64,000 nt of DNA from Clostridia bacterium (GTDB lineage Bacteria; Bacillota; Clostridia; TANB77; UBA1234): the NCBI GenBank assembly GCA_900765095.1, contig CAAFRB010000058.1:2364-66363 (forward strand), written 5' to 3'. Shown in pieces: positions 6,375 to 52,530 of this stretch. The notes below the pieces were generated by a model. It searched no databases, was not told the origin of the DNA, and saw nothing but the letters and a program-made list of their open reading frames with translations. Each line of letters begins with the position of its first letter. Within the stretch, counting starts at the first letter, position 1. A program made the translations under genes and the position numbers.

Positions 6375-7952
6375 TTATTTGTATATTTCATAGATCATTT
6401 TTGCTGTTTCTGCTCTTGTAATATCTTTTGTTGGTTTGAATGTGCCGTCTTCGTATCCGTTAATTATTTTCTTTTCACTTAGTTCTTTTATGTATTTGTA
6501 AGACCATGATGTTTTATCTATATCTTTGTAGTTTGGACATTCTTCTATGGCTACTTTTTCACTTGCTAGTTTACTTAATATTTTTGCTAACTCCTCGCGT
6601 GTTATGTACTTGTCTGCTCTAAATTCTCCGTTTTCGTATCCCTCTACAATGTTTAATTTACTTATTGCATTTATATATTTTTCTGCCCAATGTCCTTGGG
6701 TATCTTTATATATAGTTTCACCTTCTGCAGGAGTTAGTTCAAGTATTCTGCAGATTATTGTTGCTACTTCTCCTCTTGTTATTGAGCTTTCTGGCATGTA
6801 TAGTTCTTCTGTTCTTCCTATGATCCAGCTTTTTTCTTTCATGTATTTAATTGCTTTTTCTGCCCAGTGCCCATTCTCAATATCGCTGAATACTCTTGTT
6901 TCTTGCGATAAGTATTCTTCAAATATTTTCCAAATACTTTTTTCCTCCATTCCCAATCTCCATGTTCCTGTACCTTTTATGTCGTATTTACTTACTAGTT
7001 CTAGTTTTGCTTTTATGCTTTCTTCGTTTTCATACCAAATGGTGTATGTGCCTGGTTGTAATACTTTTCCGTATATTGTTGGCTTTGTTCCAACTGCACT
7101 GATGAATATTTCTGCCTGTGGTGTTTTTGTTTTTTCGTCGAATGTTACTTTGCCGTTTCGTGTTCTAATTAATTCTGCAACCGTTTCAAGCGAGACTGCT
7201 CTTCCTCCAGTTGTTGAGCCGTTTTTCCAGTAACGACCGTAAAGTGGTATTCCGAGTACTATTTTGTCTTTGTCCACTCTTTCCAATGCATATTGTATAG
7301 ATTTTTCTACAAATTCTATGCTTGCTACTGCTCCTGCTTCTCCGCCCTCGTAGTGTTCATCATAAGCCATTATCATTAGATAATCTGCATATTTAGATAG
7401 TGCTGTATAATCGTAAGATCCATGCCAGCCTGTTGTCCAACCATAAGGATTGGCTGCAACACTTACTACTACACTTTTTTCTTCTGGCAATTTTTCTCTT
7501 AACATTCTTACTAGGTCTGTGTAATCTGCTCTATCGCTTTCTGTAACATTTTCGATATCTACGTTGACACCATCTAGTCCATATTGTATGACGGCATTTG
7601 CTATGTCTGTCGCAATTTTTTCTCTATTTTTTAATGCTAATCTTCCTACTTCTCTATCCCAATGATTACTAAAGAATGGAACTATCTTTTGGTTTTGATT
7701 ATGTACTTCTATTATTAGATTTATATCGACTGTATTTAGTATCAGATTTCCTGTTGTGTCTATATCGAAATAACTTGGTGACACTTCATTTAATGTGTTT
7801 TCTGTTTGGTTAATCATTGATATGTAATTGCCACTTCCATATAGGTATGTCATGTTGTATCTTTGTGCCCCTACCTGGCTATACGATACTATAATTAATG
7901 TTATTGCCAACATTATAACGCAAACCGTGTAATATTTTTTCATATTCTCCAC
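6375..7952 (-). CDS. secreted glycoside hydrolase family 18 (chitinase-like / peptidoglycan hydrolase) with three C-terminal S-layer homology (SLH) domains
   Basis: Signal peptide; GH18 catalytic motif LDGVNVDIENV (DxxDxDxE); three repeats of the SLH pattern ..F.D....HWA...I.. Confidence 0.7.
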   Translation of the reverse strand: MENMKKYYTVCVIMLAITLIIVSYSQVGAQRYNMTYLYGSGNYISMINQTENTLNEVSPSYFDIDTTGNLILNTVDINLIIEVHNQNQKIVPFFSNHWDREVGRLALKNREKIATDIANAVIQYGLDGVNVDIENVTESDRADYTDLVRMLREKLPEEKSVVVSVAANPYGWTTGWHGSYDYTALSKYADYLMIMAYDEHYEGGEAGAVASIEFVEKSIQYALERVDKDKIVLGIPLYGRYWKNGSTTGGRAVSLETVAELIRTRNGKVTFDEKTKTPQAEIFISAVGTKPTIYGKVLQPGTYTIWYENEESIKAKLELVSKYDIKGTGTWRLGMEEKSIWKIFEEYLSQETRVFSDIENGHWAEKAIKYMKEKSWIIGRTEELYMPESSITRGEVATIICRILELTPAEGETIYKDTQGHWAEKYINAISKLNIVEGYENGEFRADKYITREELAKILSKLASEKVAIEECPNYKDIDKTSWSYKYIKELSEKKIINGYEDGTFKPTKDITRAETAKMIYEIYK

Positions 7953-8782: not shown

Positions 8783-9024
8783 TTTTCTATGAATTCGACT
8801 AAGTTTCCGGCTTCCGCTTTTCGTGCGTTTTCTTCTATTGCATTTATTCTGAATTTTATAATTTTTTCTCCGTAACGAATTTCTACTATGTCGTTAACTT
8901 TCACGTCATAGCTTGCTTTAGCTGGTTTGCCGTTGATTGATACTCTTCCTGTGTCGCACGCTTCATTAGCAACTGTTCTTCTTTTTATTACTCTGCTTAT
9001 TTTTAAAAATTTATCTAATCTCAT
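8779..9024 (-). CDS. S4-domain RNA-binding protein (YabO/Hsp15-like)
   Basis: 81 aa, MRLDKFLKISRVIKRRTVA... typical S4 fold N-terminus. Confidence 0.7.
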   Translation of the reverse strand: MRLDKFLKISRVIKRRTVANEACDTGRVSINGKPAKASYDVKVNDIVEIRYGEKIIKFRINAIEENARKAEAGNLVEFIEN

Positions 9025-9040
9025 TGTGTTCCTCCTTTTT

Positions 9041-9180
9041 TAGTCTTTCGACTCTCGAGAGTTTTCGACTTAAAAGGAAGAAAATCTCTCGCATAAATTA
9101 AAGTTTTTTTATACAATAGGAAAGAAAAATAATACGTGAAATATTTCGAAATTAGCTACTTTCCTATTATATAAAAAAAG
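9041..9180 (+). repeat. composite palindromic intergenic repeat, copy with modules B+C
   Basis: ..ctctcgagagttttcgac..gaagaaaatctctcgcataaattaaagtttttttatacaataggaaag..ctttcctatt.. Confidence 0.8.
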
Positions 9181-12256: not shown

Positions 12257-12294
12257 CAAGAAAGAATGAAAATCAAAGATTTTCAGCTTTCTTA
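12257..12294 (+). repeat. repeat module A only (hairpin aagaaag..tgaaaatc..gattttca..ctttctt)
   Basis: Directly downstream of the KAP NTPase gene. Confidence 0.6.
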
Positions 12295-23953: not shown

Positions 23954-24056
23954 TAAGAAAGATGAAAATCTCCGATTTCCATTCTTTCTACAATAGGAAA
24001 GAGAAAACAATATAAAAAACATTGTGAAATTTGTTACTTTCCCATTGTATAAAAAT
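23954..24056 (+). repeat. repeat copy, modules A+C (no B)
   Basis: taagaaagatgaaaatctccgatttccattctttc + tacaataggaaag..ctttcccattgtataaaaa. Confidence 0.75.
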
Positions 24057-24072
24057 ATAAATTAGTTTTTCT

Positions 24073-24098
24073 TTTGATTATAATTTGATAATCAAAAA
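24073..24098 (-). promoter_or_regulatory. candidate TetR operator palindrome overlapping the -10 of the acyl-CoA synthetase gene
   Basis: TTTTGATTATAATTTGATAATCAAAA (TGATTAT-N6-ATAATCA) directly downstream of the TetR gene and upstream of the ligase gene. Confidence 0.3.
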
Positions 24099-24150
24099 CT
24101 TACAGTCAAATTATATTTTAAAAAGATATTAAAGTCATTAAACTAGATGG

Positions 24151-24863: not shown

Positions 24864-25994
24864 CTACTCTTCCCATTTCAAATATTTTTTGCCAAAATGA
24901 CCATAATTAGTAGTATTTTTGTATATAGGTTTCCTCAAGTCAAGTGCCTTTATAATCCCTTTAGGAGTTAAGTCGTACTCATGATTTATTTTATTCACTA
25001 TTTCCTCATTTGAGATTTTGTTTGTTCCAAATGTTTCAACTAATATCGATACTGGCTTTGCAACACCAATTGCATAAGCAAGTTCAATTTGACATTTATC
25101 TGCTAAACCATTTTTTACAATATCTTTTGCAATCTTTCTAGCCATATACGTTGCAGACCTATCAACTTTAGTTGGATCCTTTCCTGAAAACGAGCCACCA
25201 CCATGTGGAGCATAACCACCATAAGTATCTACTATTATCTTTCTGCCTGTAAGTCCGCTATCGCCTGCCGGTCCTCCAATTACAAATCTTCCTGTAGGGT
25301 TGATAAGGTATCTAGTATCTTCATCAAGAAACTCTTCTGGTATAGTAGTCTTTATTACTTTTTCTATTACATCTTTTCTTAAAATCTCTTGTGTTACATT
25401 CTCGTCATGTTGTGCAGAAATAACTATAGCATCAATTCTTTTCGGCTTTCCGCTTTCATCATACTCCACAGTCACTTGTGTTTTTCCATCTGGTCTTAAG
25501 TATGACATAATTTCCTCTTTTCTTACACAAGCTAACTTCTTAGCAAGTTTATGAGCATAATATATAGGAAATGGCATGTATTCTTCAGTTTCATTACAAG
25601 CATATCCAAATATAATTCCTTGATCACCAGCACCTTCTCCCATGTTTTCACCACTTTTTTCCTCTTGTGATTTGTCTACACCTAATGCAATATCAGGAGA
25701 TTGTTGCTTTAACATTACTTTTATTTCGCACGTATCAGCATTAAAGCCATACTCTTCCTTCGTATAACCTATGCTCTTTATTGTATCTCTCACTATTTTT
25801 TCAATATCCACTTTTGCTTTTGTTGTAACTTCGCCCATTACAAGCACAAAATTATTATTAGCACATACTTCACAAGCAACCCTTGAATCTGGATCTTGCT
25901 CTATCATTGCATCTAAAATATTATCTGCTATTAAGTCACATACTTTATCTGGATGTCCTTCTGTTACACTTTCACTTGTAAATAATTTTTTCAT
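24864..25994 (-). CDS. metK: S-adenosylmethionine synthetase
   Basis: ..[14 protein letters not shown].., ..[16 protein letters not shown]..; full-length 376 aa. Confidence 0.95.
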
Positions 25995-26014
25995 ATTAAA
26001 CGTTTCCTTTCTAT

Positions 26015-26175
26015 TCTATTACTCAGAGATGGAAATCTACGATTTTCATTCTTTCGACCCTCGAGAGTTTTCGACTGAAAATGAGAAAAGTTCTCGCATA
26101 AATTAAAGTTTTTTTATACAATAGGAAAGATAATTAATGCATAAAAGGTTGCAAATTTGTTAATTTCCTATTGTA
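26015..26175 (+). repeat. repeat copy A(partial)+B+C inserted in the metK leader between the riboswitch terminator and the metK RBS
   Basis: ..gattttcattctttcgaccctcgagagttttcgactgaaaatgagaaaagttctcgcataaattaaagtttttttatacaataggaaag..tttcctattgtataaaaaaa. Confidence 0.8.
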
Positions 26176-26315
26176 TAAAAAAACGATAGGACACAAAATC
26201 CTATCGCTAACATTTTGTATCACTCAAGCCTTTGCTTGTCGGTATTAGCACCTTAGTTTTAACTAGGTTGCTGTGGAGTCATAAAGCCGATCTCTCGTCC
26301 ACTCTTGATATCTAT
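26176..26315 (-). promoter_or_regulatory. SAM-I (S-box) riboswitch aptamer plus intrinsic terminator in the metK leader
   Basis: Minus-strand RNA: UAUCAAGAGUGGACGAGAGAUCGGCUUUAUGACUCCACAGCAACC...AAGGUGCUAAUACC...CUUGAGUGAUA (S-box-like P1-P4 elements), followed by the hairpin CGAUAGGAUUUUGUGUCCUAUCG + U7. Confidence 0.55.
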
Positions 26316-26352
26316 TTATTCACATTATTATCAAATTTTATTCATAAGCGTT

Positions 26353-26793
26353 TCACGCCAACATAGAACGTACTATATCGCTTAATAACTTGTTATCTGC
26401 TCTTCCCGCTGTTTTTGTTTTAGCAATCTGCATTACTTTTCCCATGTCTTTTATAGAAGTAGCGCCAGCCTCTTTAACAGCATCTTCAACTATCTTCTGA
26501 ATCTCTTCTTTAGTAAGTTCTGCTGGTAAATATGCTTTTATAATTGCAATCTCGTCATTAACTTCAGAAATCAAATCGTTTCTTCCACTTTTTTCAATAT
26601 CCGCTAATGTTTCTTTTCTCTTCTTTAACTCTTTAGCAATTATTTCTAGTATTTCATTTTCACCTAATTCTTTTTGGGTATCTTTTTCTATTTGTAATAT
26701 TGCAGATCTTATCATCATTATTGTGTTCTTTTTTAGTTCGTTTTTTTCTTTCATAGCATTTTTGAAGTCTTCTAATAATTGTTCTTTTAGCAC
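26353..26793 (-). CDS. GatB/YqeY-domain protein
   Basis: 146 aa, typical YqeY architecture, immediately downstream of rpsU as in many Firmicutes. Confidence 0.75.
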   Translation of the reverse strand: MLKEQLLEDFKNAMKEKNELKKNTIMMIRSAILQIEKDTQKELGENEILEIIAKELKKRKETLADIEKSGRNDLISEVNDEIAIIKAYLPAELTKEEIQKIVEDAVKEAGATSIKDMGKVMQIAKTKTAGRADNKLLSDIVRSMLA

Positions 26794-32764: not shown

Positions 32765-32813
32765 GGCAAACTTCTTTATGGTTCCCCCTTTTAGAAGTTT
32801 GCCATATTTTTTA
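32765..32813 (+). terminator. intrinsic terminator downstream of the two-component operon
   Basis: GGCAAACUUCU-17 nt loop-AGAAGUUUGCC + AUAUUUUUUA. Confidence 0.55.
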
Positions 32814-32892
32814 TGCGAGAATTTTTCTTTCTTTTAAATCAAAAACTCTCGGGGTTCTAAAGACTGAAAGTCGAATCTTTTCAGCTTTCTTG
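32811..32892 (-). repeat. repeat copy in inverted orientation (modules A+B on minus strand)
   Basis: Minus strand: caagaaagctgaaaagattcgactttcagtcttt..ccccgagagtttttgatttaaaagaaagaaaaattctcgcataa. Confidence 0.7.
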
Positions 32893-35507: not shown

Positions 35508-35560
35508 AAGGATAAAGCTTAAAGTTCATACGGACCTCAAGGCTTTATCCTTATTTTTAT
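35508..35560 (+). terminator. intrinsic terminator downstream of murI
   Basis: AAGGAUAAAGC-24 nt loop-GCUUUAUCCUU + AUUUUUAU. Confidence 0.55.
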
Positions 35561-35564
35561 ACGA

Positions 35565-35660
35565 TAAAAAAGTAACAAATTTGTAATCTTTTATGTACTA
35601 ATTTTCTTTCCCATTGCATAAAAAATTTAATTTATACGAGAGTTTTTAAGTCTTTCTTGT
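35565..35660 (-). repeat. partial repeat copy in inverted orientation (module C 3' part + B/C junction)
   Basis: Plus strand agtaacaaatttgtaatcttttatgtactaattttctttcccattgcataaaaaatttaatttatacgagag = reverse complement of the module C/B junction. Confidence 0.6.
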
Positions 35661-52412: not shown

Positions 52413-52448
52413 TGCAACATTTTCCTCCTTTATTTTCAATCCAAATTT

Positions 52449-52477
52449 AGTATACTATAACTTTCACCTCTTATCAA
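52449..52477 (-). promoter_or_regulatory. sigma-A promoter (TTGATA-N17-TATACT) for the small acidic protein gene + adk
   Basis: Minus strand TTGATAagaggtgaaagttatagTATACT. Confidence 0.5.
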
Positions 52478-52489
52478 CAAAAAAGCTCA

Positions 52490-52530
52490 AGAAATAAAAA
52501 AATAAAGCACTGCCTGAAAGCAATGCTCTA
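52490..52530 (-). terminator. intrinsic terminator downstream of secY
   Basis: Minus RNA AGAGCAUUGCUUUCAGGCAGUGCUUU + AUUUUUUUAUUU. Confidence 0.65.

Follow-up and report, generated by a model that had tools for sequence, protein, structure and literature searches.

A probably mobile, terminator-associated repeat behind the SAM-I riboswitch terminator in the metK leader of a gut Clostridia lineage

The metK leader described here lies in a 64,000-nt stretch of DNA, referred to as the window, from a Clostridia bacterium of an uncultured gut lineage (GCA_900765095.1, CAAFRB010000058.1, positions 2,364–66,363), in which rpsT, rpsU, yqeY, metK, a gene for a TetR-family regulator and a gene for an AMP-binding enzyme are neighbours. 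The leader occupies the minus-strand space between yqeY (26353–26793) and metK (24864–25994), and it consists of an S-adenosylmethionine (SAM) riboswitch aptamer of the SAM-I type, an intrinsic terminator, a copy of an interspersed repeat and the metK ribosome-binding site (RBS). A preliminary description made from the sequence alone had proposed this order, which was confirmed on the minus strand with essentially unchanged coordinates (Table 1). The identity of metK follows from the Pfam domains S-AdoMet_synt_N, S-AdoMet_synt_M and S-AdoMet_synt_C on an identical protein and from homologues named methionine adenosyltransferase. We consider it probable that a mobile, non-autonomous, terminator-homing repeat has landed behind the terminator of a normal SAM-I riboswitch.

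Judged by its sequence, the metK leader carries an ordinary, full-length and intact SAM-I riboswitch in the standard S-box arrangement. A search with the Rfam covariance model RF00162 (gathering score 44.4 bits), run as a check on the S-box-like aptamer claimed earlier, returned a significant hit of 71.2 bits (E = 1.1e-14) that covers model positions 1–108 without truncation, and the aptamer is kept in all relatives compared, with scores of 69.9–73.8 bits. In the cmscan alignment, P2, P3 and P4 all pair, the only non-canonical pairs being the three outermost ones of P1, and the pseudoknot partners UCGG/CCGA are present. The preliminary description had noted a deviation in P2 and, on its account, doubted the identity of the aptamer. 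The sequence does differ, yet the doubt falls away: P2b reads GAG/CUU in place of GGG/CCC with pairing retained, and the P2-region sequence GGACGAGAGA is conserved in every relative compared. The gene downstream, metK, belongs to SAM metabolism, and in the expression platform a terminator alternates with a predicted antiterminator formed with the 3′ strand of P1, the two structures excluding each other.

The terminator, AGCGATAGGA-TTTTG-TGTCCTATCGTT at 26208–26182 followed by a T-rich tail, folds at −14.7 kcal/mol on its own. Together with its U-tract it was found at 26177–26208, where 26176–26207 had been proposed, and it is the sole terminator-like site within 25900–26450, a region for which shuffled sequences yield 0.1. 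The predicted antiterminator, GAUACAAAAU/AUUUUGUGUC, is a 10-bp helix of −8.5 kcal/mol, as opposed to −14.7 kcal/mol for the terminator. Equivalent pairings with compensating changes are readable in the leaders of two related contigs, L008 and L091 (L-numbers are labels of the related loci or contigs compared with the window), and the terminator stem covaries in relatives as well (GG/CC to AG/CU). Across 10 related leaders, aptamer and terminator are conserved with compensating stem changes. With SAM bound, P1 would keep its 3′ strand, allowing the terminator at 26184–26208 and its U7 tract to form; with no SAM, the P1 3′ strand would pair with the loop and 3′ arm of the terminator as an antiterminator, and RNA polymerase would read through. 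The riboswitch is presumably functional in the SAM response.

Behind the terminator lies a 157-nt copy of the repeat (26025–26183), which ends 31 nt before the metK start and is placed by nhmmer, in the order C-B-A, at 26025/26026–26181 (E = 8e-47). The earlier reading of a copy with modules B, C and a partial A was right in that all three modules are there; module A, however, is degenerate rather than truncated. The C hairpin is fully intact (−22.8 kcal/mol, ~21 uninterrupted pairs), module B is weakened to −5.4 kcal/mol from −13.6 kcal/mol in the family consensus, and module A has dropped to −4.1 kcal/mol from −11.3 kcal/mol, the copy as a whole being 84.5% identical to the consensus. As had been noticed before, terminator and element overlap: the T7 at 26177–26183 serves both as the U-tract of the terminator and as the first arm of the C palindrome, where it is predicted to pair with the A7 at 26109–26115, and at the empty sites of relatives a T-run is already there. 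The expectation that the insertion adds ~160 nt of structured RNA also held, as the 231-nt stretch from terminator to start codon folds at −57.4 kcal/mol (z = −4.1 versus shuffles). The same arrangement recurs in independent assemblies from other samples, namely identically in L001–L003 and with 3 substitutions in L147, which argues that it is not an assembly artefact. In the relatives, the metK RBS at the same place is AGGAGG, as against AGAAAGGA in the window.

Table 1. Features of the metK leader and the other repeat copies tabulated for the window
Feature	Position	Strand	Remarks
metK, S-adenosylmethionine synthetase, 376 aa	24864..25994	-	Open reading frame (ORF)
metK RBS AGAAAGGA	26005..26012	-	10 nt before ATG; read from sequence
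Module A hairpin, degenerate	26025..26055	-	nhmmer E = 8.4e-7
Module B hairpin, weakened	26058..26097	-	nhmmer E = 3.5e-19
C-B linker CTTTAATTTAT	26098..26108	-	Ends in the TTTAT motif preceding every B module; from alignments
Module C, long hairpin T7-ATACAATAGGAAA...TTTCCTATTGTAT-A7	26109..26183	-	nhmmer E = 4.8e-18
U7 tract of terminator = first 7 nt of module C palindrome	26177..26183	-	From sequence
Riboswitch terminator hairpin AGCGAUAGGA / UCCUAUCG + closing pairs	26184..26208	-	From fold and sequence
Predicted antiterminator 5′ strand GAUACAAAAU	26212..26221	-	Overlaps P1 3′ side; pairs with AUUUUGUGUC at 26190-26199
SAM-I (S-box) aptamer	26214..26314	-	RF00162
Weak promoter-like site GTGAAA-18-GATAAT	26327..26356	-	Upstream of aptamer; low confidence
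Repeat copy, C-B	9023..9178	-	Directly after terminator hairpin
Repeat copy, B then C	15022..15126	-	Directly after terminator; site empty in L088
Repeat copy, B-A	19045..19131	-	~30-50 nt before next gene's start; site empty in L088
Repeat copy, C-A	23958..24055	-	26 nt before AMP-binding gene start; site empty in L088, L008, L097
Repeat copy, B-A	32810..32882	+	Directly after terminator of + strand gene; site empty in L088
Repeat copy, C + start of B	35554..35651	+	After terminator of + strand gene
Repeat copy, B then C	42082..42196	+	After terminator of + strand gene
Full repeat copy, C-B-A	44937..45099	-	After terminator
Full repeat copy, C-B-A	63599..63755	-	After terminator; 97% identical to family consensus

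The metK copy belongs to a previously undescribed, lineage-restricted interspersed family, whose 157-nt, non-coding unit reads C-B-A in the sense of the transcript and is made up of three hairpin modules: C, T7-ATACAATAGGAAAG...CTTTCCTATTGTAT-A7, which is followed by the linker CTTTAATTTAT; B, GCGAGAGATTTTC...GAAAACTCTCGAG; and A, GAAAGAATGAAAATC-GAA-GATTTTCATCTTTC. A consensus structure calculated by RNAalifold on 20 copies recovers exactly these three hairpins, and 96% of the cells in the alignment are paired, compared with ~50% when the partners are slid by 1–3 columns. Changes on both sides of a pair occur only in three adjacent pairs of the C stem, where they define the subfamilies ATACAATAGG/CCTATTGTAT, ATGCAATAGG/CCTATTGCAT and GTGTAATAGG/CCTATTACAC; because the copies are related to one another, these paired changes are modest evidence of constraint on the C palindrome and not proof of an RNA function. 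The window holds the repeat at 11 loci, i.e. at metK, as three near-full copies (9023–9178, 44937–45099 and 63599–63755), which match the metK copy at 85–88% identity, and as seven partial ones. Scanning public metagenomes with the core of module B gave 46 stretches; the majority belong to a single human-gut assembly, and its contigs share ~95% identity with the window in the parts that overlap. CBA is the main architecture (33 times), next to C, B, BA, CB, BC and CA, and 29 distinct CBA sites with unique flanks are mostly 91–99% identical to the consensus. No Rfam model matched the element at its gathering score; relaxing the limit to E = 10 brought up nothing but hairpin-like noise, such as miRNA models that scored well under their cut-offs. 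A phage origin was rejected, as the B-core pattern had no match in viral contigs.

What unites the copies is their position. Those in the window that begin with C or B each start at the T-run of a locus-specific, G+C-containing hairpin that looks like the intrinsic terminator of the upstream gene. Among 61 distinct 5′ junctions, 48 abut a qualifying hairpin, defined as one of −8 kcal/mol or stronger that ends ≤3 nt from the T-run, whereas the other T5+ runs in the window, taken as a control, do so in 22 of 587 cases (Fisher p = 3e-43); by a rough count from this test, about a quarter of the terminator-like sites in the window carry a repeat copy. Most classifiable copies (42/53) lie downstream of a co-oriented ORF, and 31/53 lie between co-directional genes, often 25–125 nt from the next start, meaning that a location in a 5′ leader is common for the family. 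Orientation tracks the terminator, the three + strand copies of the window following + strand genes. The presumed insertion target is a T-run, usually ...TTTTTAT, and in front of most C and B starts there is either TTTAT or a T-run. C and B-A each also stand alone immediately behind a terminator and its TTTAT, and TTTAT forms the end of the C unit as well; CBA may therefore be a compound of separate parts that now moves as a single unit.

Terminators of RNA genes are followed as well as those of protein genes, with copies just downstream of RNase P RNA (L111:6556–7159) and 6S RNA (L140:3682–4114) and likewise of 5S rRNA plus a tRNA (L107:3115–3422), a tRNA cluster (L105:10129–10844) and a single tRNA (L117:11856–12118). 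Nor is the metK riboswitch the sole attenuator targeted: on the minus strand of L145 (6680–7209), the terminator at the end of a T-box leader (RF00230, 95.3 bits, cut-off 93) has a full CBA copy immediately behind it, at 6805–6961. The metK leader is therefore not special; it is one target of a family that inserts after intrinsic terminators generally. At the L145 locus, the CBA copy is in turn followed by a second, partial T-box 3′ domain (GGGTGGTACCACG with its own terminator, ~6680–6735), and the aspS-like gene downstream appears to be split into ORFs of 78 and 491 aa.

Comparison with relatives reveals that the sites are filled in some genomes and empty in others. For the window copies at 23958, 32810, 19069 (within the 19045..19131 copy) and 15022, the orthologous sites are empty in the sister species L088, and some are empty in further relatives too, the junction between filled and empty alleles falling directly after the terminator T-run or TTTAT. 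Conversely, the window has an empty terminator at ~52440–52500 where L138, which shares ~95.5% identity with the window, carries a C module, and an intergenic region next to a racemase gene contains copies in L088 and L097 in opposite orientations.

At metK itself, the MetK identities define three clades and an outgroup, and the space behind the terminator differs among and within them. The window and L147 (MetK 99% identical) share an old full copy, apart from the 3 substitutions in the latter. In L088 (92% to the window), the terminator and its T7 are followed only by ATACAATA, the first 8 nt of C. L008, L097 and L151 (99% to each other) retain the remnant TCGAGAGT...GAAAG, while two species with MetK 94–95% identical to this group carry either a full copy that is young, belongs to another subfamily and matches the consensus at 93.5% identity (L009), or a 5′ remnant of C (L148). 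L091, L094 and L149 (96% for L091 versus L094) have a C-type module only, ~70% identical to the C consensus, and the outgroup L010 (79% to the window) has a different terminator and no element. This range of states, from full copy through remnants to nothing, bears out the proposal that the sequence is an insertion and not an ordinary conserved leader. Whatever the state, the leader keeps its aptamer, antiterminator and terminator, with compensating changes in the stem of the last. Occupation of the site is thus of long standing and its turnover fast, and the cause could be either one ancient insertion with decay and conversion or repeated insertions; the different C-stem subfamilies of the L009 copy (GTGTAATAGG/CCTATTACAC) and the window copy (ATACAATAGG/CCTATTGTAT) favour at least two insertion events. 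The comparative data make the element look optional for metK rather than required, and under either history it appears dispensable for the riboswitch.

How such a copy would arrive and what it would do can be outlined as follows. The element would insert immediately 3′ of an intrinsic-terminator hairpin, at its T-run and in an orientation set by the terminator, and the riboswitch terminator would have been targeted because it resembles any other terminator. The insertion starts after the last U, with termination decided before the element is transcribed; being wholly downstream of the decision point, it should leave SAM sensing and termination unchanged. Only the read-through mRNA made at low SAM would carry the element, its 5′ untranslated region (UTR) being longer by ~160 nt in the form of one perfect ~21-bp hairpin and two decaying ones. 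Most likely, the effect on metK would be neutral or slight. Two more active roles were considered and rejected. An element-internal promoter that bypasses the riboswitch finds no candidate, as there is no sigma-70-like site within 26025–26183 and the only match near a consensus copy has its −10 box in the host flank. The promoter-like site upstream of the aptamer (Table 1) is the sole sigma-70-like match in 25900–26450 and does not exceed chance expectation. As for a strong terminator, the C stem has an A-U-rich base with CUUUAAUUUAU behind it, which makes this hairpin a poor terminator, and the A hairpin, with 3 G-C pairs, is followed by a weak tail; in addition, many members of the family have a terminator on one side and the RBS of the following gene on the other.

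Several observations weigh against a mobile, terminator-homing repeat. Neither terminal inverted repeats nor target-site duplications were found: the left end (C) and the right end (A) are unrelated, all inverted repeats being internal to the modules, and the 29 CBA copies share no flanking direct repeat. When filled and empty alleles were compared, sites 1 and 4 showed no duplication, whereas site 2 was ambiguous. Neither a transposase nor an autonomous parent came to light in 405 kb of related loci and the window, where no segment of ≥300 bp is multi-copy except for orthologous overlaps. A few copies lack any adjacent hairpin, and the terminator adjacency could partly reflect selection, terminators being a safe landing zone, instead of targeting. 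At metK, all three clades with ≥81% MetK identity carry the element or at least remnants of it, and this occupancy, along with an intact C next to decayed B and A, could hint at retention by selection.

These last points lead to the question of whether the metK copy might be more than a passenger. That the element, and especially its C hairpin, has been co-opted in metK control, be it as an RNase III site that frees the read-through mRNA of its aptamer, as a 5′ stabiliser or as a weak second attenuator, strikes us as very unlikely. RNase III does cleave the hairpins of Correia elements in Neisseria mRNAs, all contigs examined from the species contain the insertion, the C hairpin has stayed intact (−22.8 kcal/mol, ~21 pairs) in an old copy (84.5%) whose B and A modules have decayed, and a C-type module occupies the same place in the L091/L094/L149 clade. 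Close relatives, however, keep riboswitch and metK with a remnant of 8–15 nt or nothing, the same element sits at dozens of unrelated loci, and the C hairpin, with its A-U-rich base and CUUUAAUUUAU after it, would be a poor terminator. A broader variant, in which the repeats are host-serving modules of terminators in the manner of REP/BIME, acting as read-through insulators, in protection from 3′ exonucleases or as protein-binding or DNA-structural sites, would account for their strict position and orientation, for the both-sided changes that preserve the C stem and for the near-identity of copies in species whose MetK proteins are ~85% identical, such as the L009 copy with 93.5% to the consensus. 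We regard it as unlikely all the same, given that sites differ between sister species and even between strains ~95% identical, that truncation, shuffling (BC, CA, B alone) or decay has affected many copies, that the elements lie after the terminator and so mostly outside the upstream mRNA, that only about a quarter of the window's terminator-like sites are occupied by the rough count given above and that near-identical copies at ~29 sites in one metagenome suggest a recent burst.

The number of events at metK is a separate matter. A single insertion in the ancestor of the clade, inherited vertically and decaying in a lineage-specific manner with no recurrent targeting, would fit the remnants at the exact site in all three clades with ≥81% MetK identity, only the outgroup L010 having none; two deletions that keep TCGAGAGT...GAAAG would turn an L009-type copy into the L008-type spacer, and the window copy is old. 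Yet the L009 copy is young and of a different C-stem subfamily, a pattern that gene conversion could mimic; species with MetK 94–95% identical show three different states, and a T-box terminator elsewhere is occupied likewise. We therefore treat a single insertion as possible, if on the unlikely side. That an assembly error joined the repeat into the metK leader has next to no probability: Logan short-read contigs break in the element 75 nt upstream of metK and the low-coverage L096 joins different upstream sequence at a C-like module, as would be expected of misassembly, but identical or near-identical full leaders occur in four independent assemblies (L001, L002, L003 and L147) from different samples and pipelines, and another species, L009, has a full copy at the same site. 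Taking the mobile, terminator-homing repeat further, one may propose a new class of structure-guided, non-autonomous element with three hairpins and neither terminal inverted repeats nor target duplication, moved perhaps by a single-strand HUH-type transposase or a reverse transcriptase, for which riboswitch attenuators (SAM-I at metK, T-box at an aspS-like gene) serve as landing pads on a par with gene-end terminators and whose C hairpin at metK has been retained for a role in the processing or stabilisation of read-through mRNA. This proposal we hold to be doubtful; if true, such repeats would remodel leaders recurrently and systematically in this gut Clostridia lineage.

Orthologous overlaps aside, the search of the 405 kb and the window for an autonomous parent or insertion sequence (IS) turned up one weak match, 429 bp long and 82% identical (L113/L130), and no high-identity multi-copy segment. 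In L091 and L094, whose MetK proteins are 81–83% identical, a transposase insertion lies a few kb upstream of metK and the downstream TetR gene is absent; the inserted region between ogg and rpsT (L091:1574–8189, L094:1577–8192) includes two IS4-family (DDE_Tnp_1) transposase genes and several unannotated genes. These IS4-type transposases were rejected as a parent, being without C or A ends. A different kind of element is found in L096, where an ORF-less group II intron of ~670 nt (1085–1790, GTGCG...CCTAC; RF02001 145.7 bits, RF01998 66.4 bits) stands directly after a terminator T-run (TTTTTTTTATA), its 3′ end adjoining a C-like module and metK; the contig contains no riboswitch. We rejected L096 as a riboswitch-less metK allele: at 2.6x coverage and with the join at a repeated module, the contig is probably chimeric. 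It nevertheless shows a second kind of terminator-homing element in the lineage.

The closest parallels to the repeat lie in several known systems, each of which it resembles only in part. Group IIC introns are mobile retroelements that home to the stem-loops of intrinsic terminators, and the repeat shares with them the insertion immediately 3′ of terminator hairpins in a fixed orientation, the L096 intron occupying just such a site; unlike them, it is 157 nt long, lacks a reverse transcriptase and has no ribozyme domains (no group II match at E up to 10). Non-autonomous elements derived from IS200/IS605, such as PATEs and REP/REPIN, have no terminal inverted repeats or target duplication, hairpins at their ends and a short fixed target. 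The likeness to PATEs is one of anatomy only, as the repeat also does without terminal inverted repeats or duplication, has hairpins near both ends and targets a T-run or TTTAT; no Y1/HUH transposase partner was found in the 405 kb of related loci and the window, and the orientation of the repeat tracks the local terminator on both strands (3/11 window copies being on the other strand), in contrast to a pure replication-strand bias. REP/BIME differ in that the modules here are A+T-rich, with stems of 11–21 bp and long loops, and there is no G+C-rich palindrome of 20–40 nt with a GTAG/CGTC head. Classical MITEs (miniature inverted-repeat transposable elements) are likewise small, non-coding and multi-copy and differ in presence between relatives, but the repeat has neither terminal inverted repeats nor target duplication. 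It thus fails the defining tests for a classical MITE, for REP/BIME and for a group II intron. SPRITE repeats, too, are small, enriched near the 3′ ends of genes and linked to transcription termination; they are, however, terminator-like themselves (18-bp stem plus U-rich tract), whereas the present element is a poor terminator beside a pre-existing, locus-specific one.

Two families from Firmicutes come closest, one as a precedent for the situation and the other as an analogue of the element. In the pneumococcal trp leader, an A1B2C1 BOX element lies between two T-box riboswitches that are reported to be still functional (Croucher et al. 2011, PMC3049150). As at metK, a modular A-B-C small repeat is found in the riboswitch leader of a Firmicute and is transcribed within a long compound 5′ UTR. 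The two cases differ in host and in riboswitch class, which is T-box there and SAM-I here, and nothing here establishes a relationship in sequence. The mobilisation of BOX has been attributed to terminal inverted repeats, of which the present family has none, and the link of BOX to terminators is far less tight. The bcr1 repeat, group A of the bcr repeats of the Bacillus cereus group, is a high-copy element of ~155 nt with TTTAT-associated mobility, described as restricted to that group and flanked by 5-bp TTTAT direct repeats (PMC6542083, PMC6199540, PMC3184786, PMC3446304). Both are non-coding repeats of Firmicute hosts with nearly the same length (~155 versus 157 nt), a high copy number and a distribution that is not conserved between relatives; both show compensatory changes that keep the fold, and their copies are often found in 5′ or 3′ UTRs or in intra-operon spacers. 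In the present family, however, TTTAT is regular only at the left junction and the C-B boundary and is lacking at the right end of CBA, there is no duplication around CBA, and adjacency to a terminator hairpin dominates. With its host being an uncultured gut Clostridia lineage, and by comparison of descriptions, we take the repeat to be an analogue of bcr1 and not a member.

Taken by itself, the metK case is a tidy and unsurprising instance of selfish DNA in a gene leader; it has a published precedent as a repeat in a riboswitch leader and does not overturn current understanding; the targeting mechanism of the family is of more interest. The locus does provide a natural experiment, in which what follows the terminator of one and the same SAM-I switch ranges from a full or partial insert through remnants to nothing, and the preservation of the switch across all of these states supports the view that the regulatory decision is complete by the U-tract. 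More generally, regulatory terminators in leaders are exposed to terminator-recognising mobile DNA, as seen for SAM-I and T-box leaders, and insertions behind attenuators can lengthen and restructure 5′ UTRs. For practical purposes, the repeat puts a distance between riboswitch and gene that may exceed what annotation pipelines allow for, it is a source of strain-level markers in an uncultured gut lineage, and it fragments short-read assemblies. Four independent Logan short-read contigs (L004–L007) all end in module B, at about position 26069 of the window, and L101, L106, L111, L129, L131, L137 and L138 likewise begin or end in a repeat module.

Further observations concern individual copies. 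The ATG that opens module B (in TTTATGCGAGAG) starts a conserved frame of 17 codons with its TGA stop in module A (at metK, minus strand 26047–26100), which reads MREIFFLSVENSRGTKE in the consensus and MRELFSFSVENSRGSKE at metK. As it has no preceding Shine-Dalgarno sequence, it is probably a by-product of sequence conservation. In the 9023–9178 copy, module A is replaced by AAGGAGG and the ATG that opens MRLDKFLKISRVIKRRTVANE (window 8960–9045, minus strand), so that module B runs straight into a small gene's RBS; the ORF, of <90 aa, presumably encodes a small S4-domain RNA-binding protein. Between the TetR and AMP-binding genes (window 24056–24140, minus strand), a promoter-like ATGACT-17-TATAAT at 24138–24110 is followed by the palindrome TTTTGATTATCAAATTATAATCAAAAG, which could be a TetR operator, and the C-A copy at 23958–24055 sits after this palindrome, inside the presumed 5′ UTR. 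Finally, solitary A-type hairpins (AAGAAAG..GAAAATC-loop-GATTTTC..CTTTCTT) are located at gene ends at 12260–12289, 19377–19400 and 42223–42252 of the window; they could be solo remnants of the repeat or else ordinary A+T-rich terminators with a likeness to module A.

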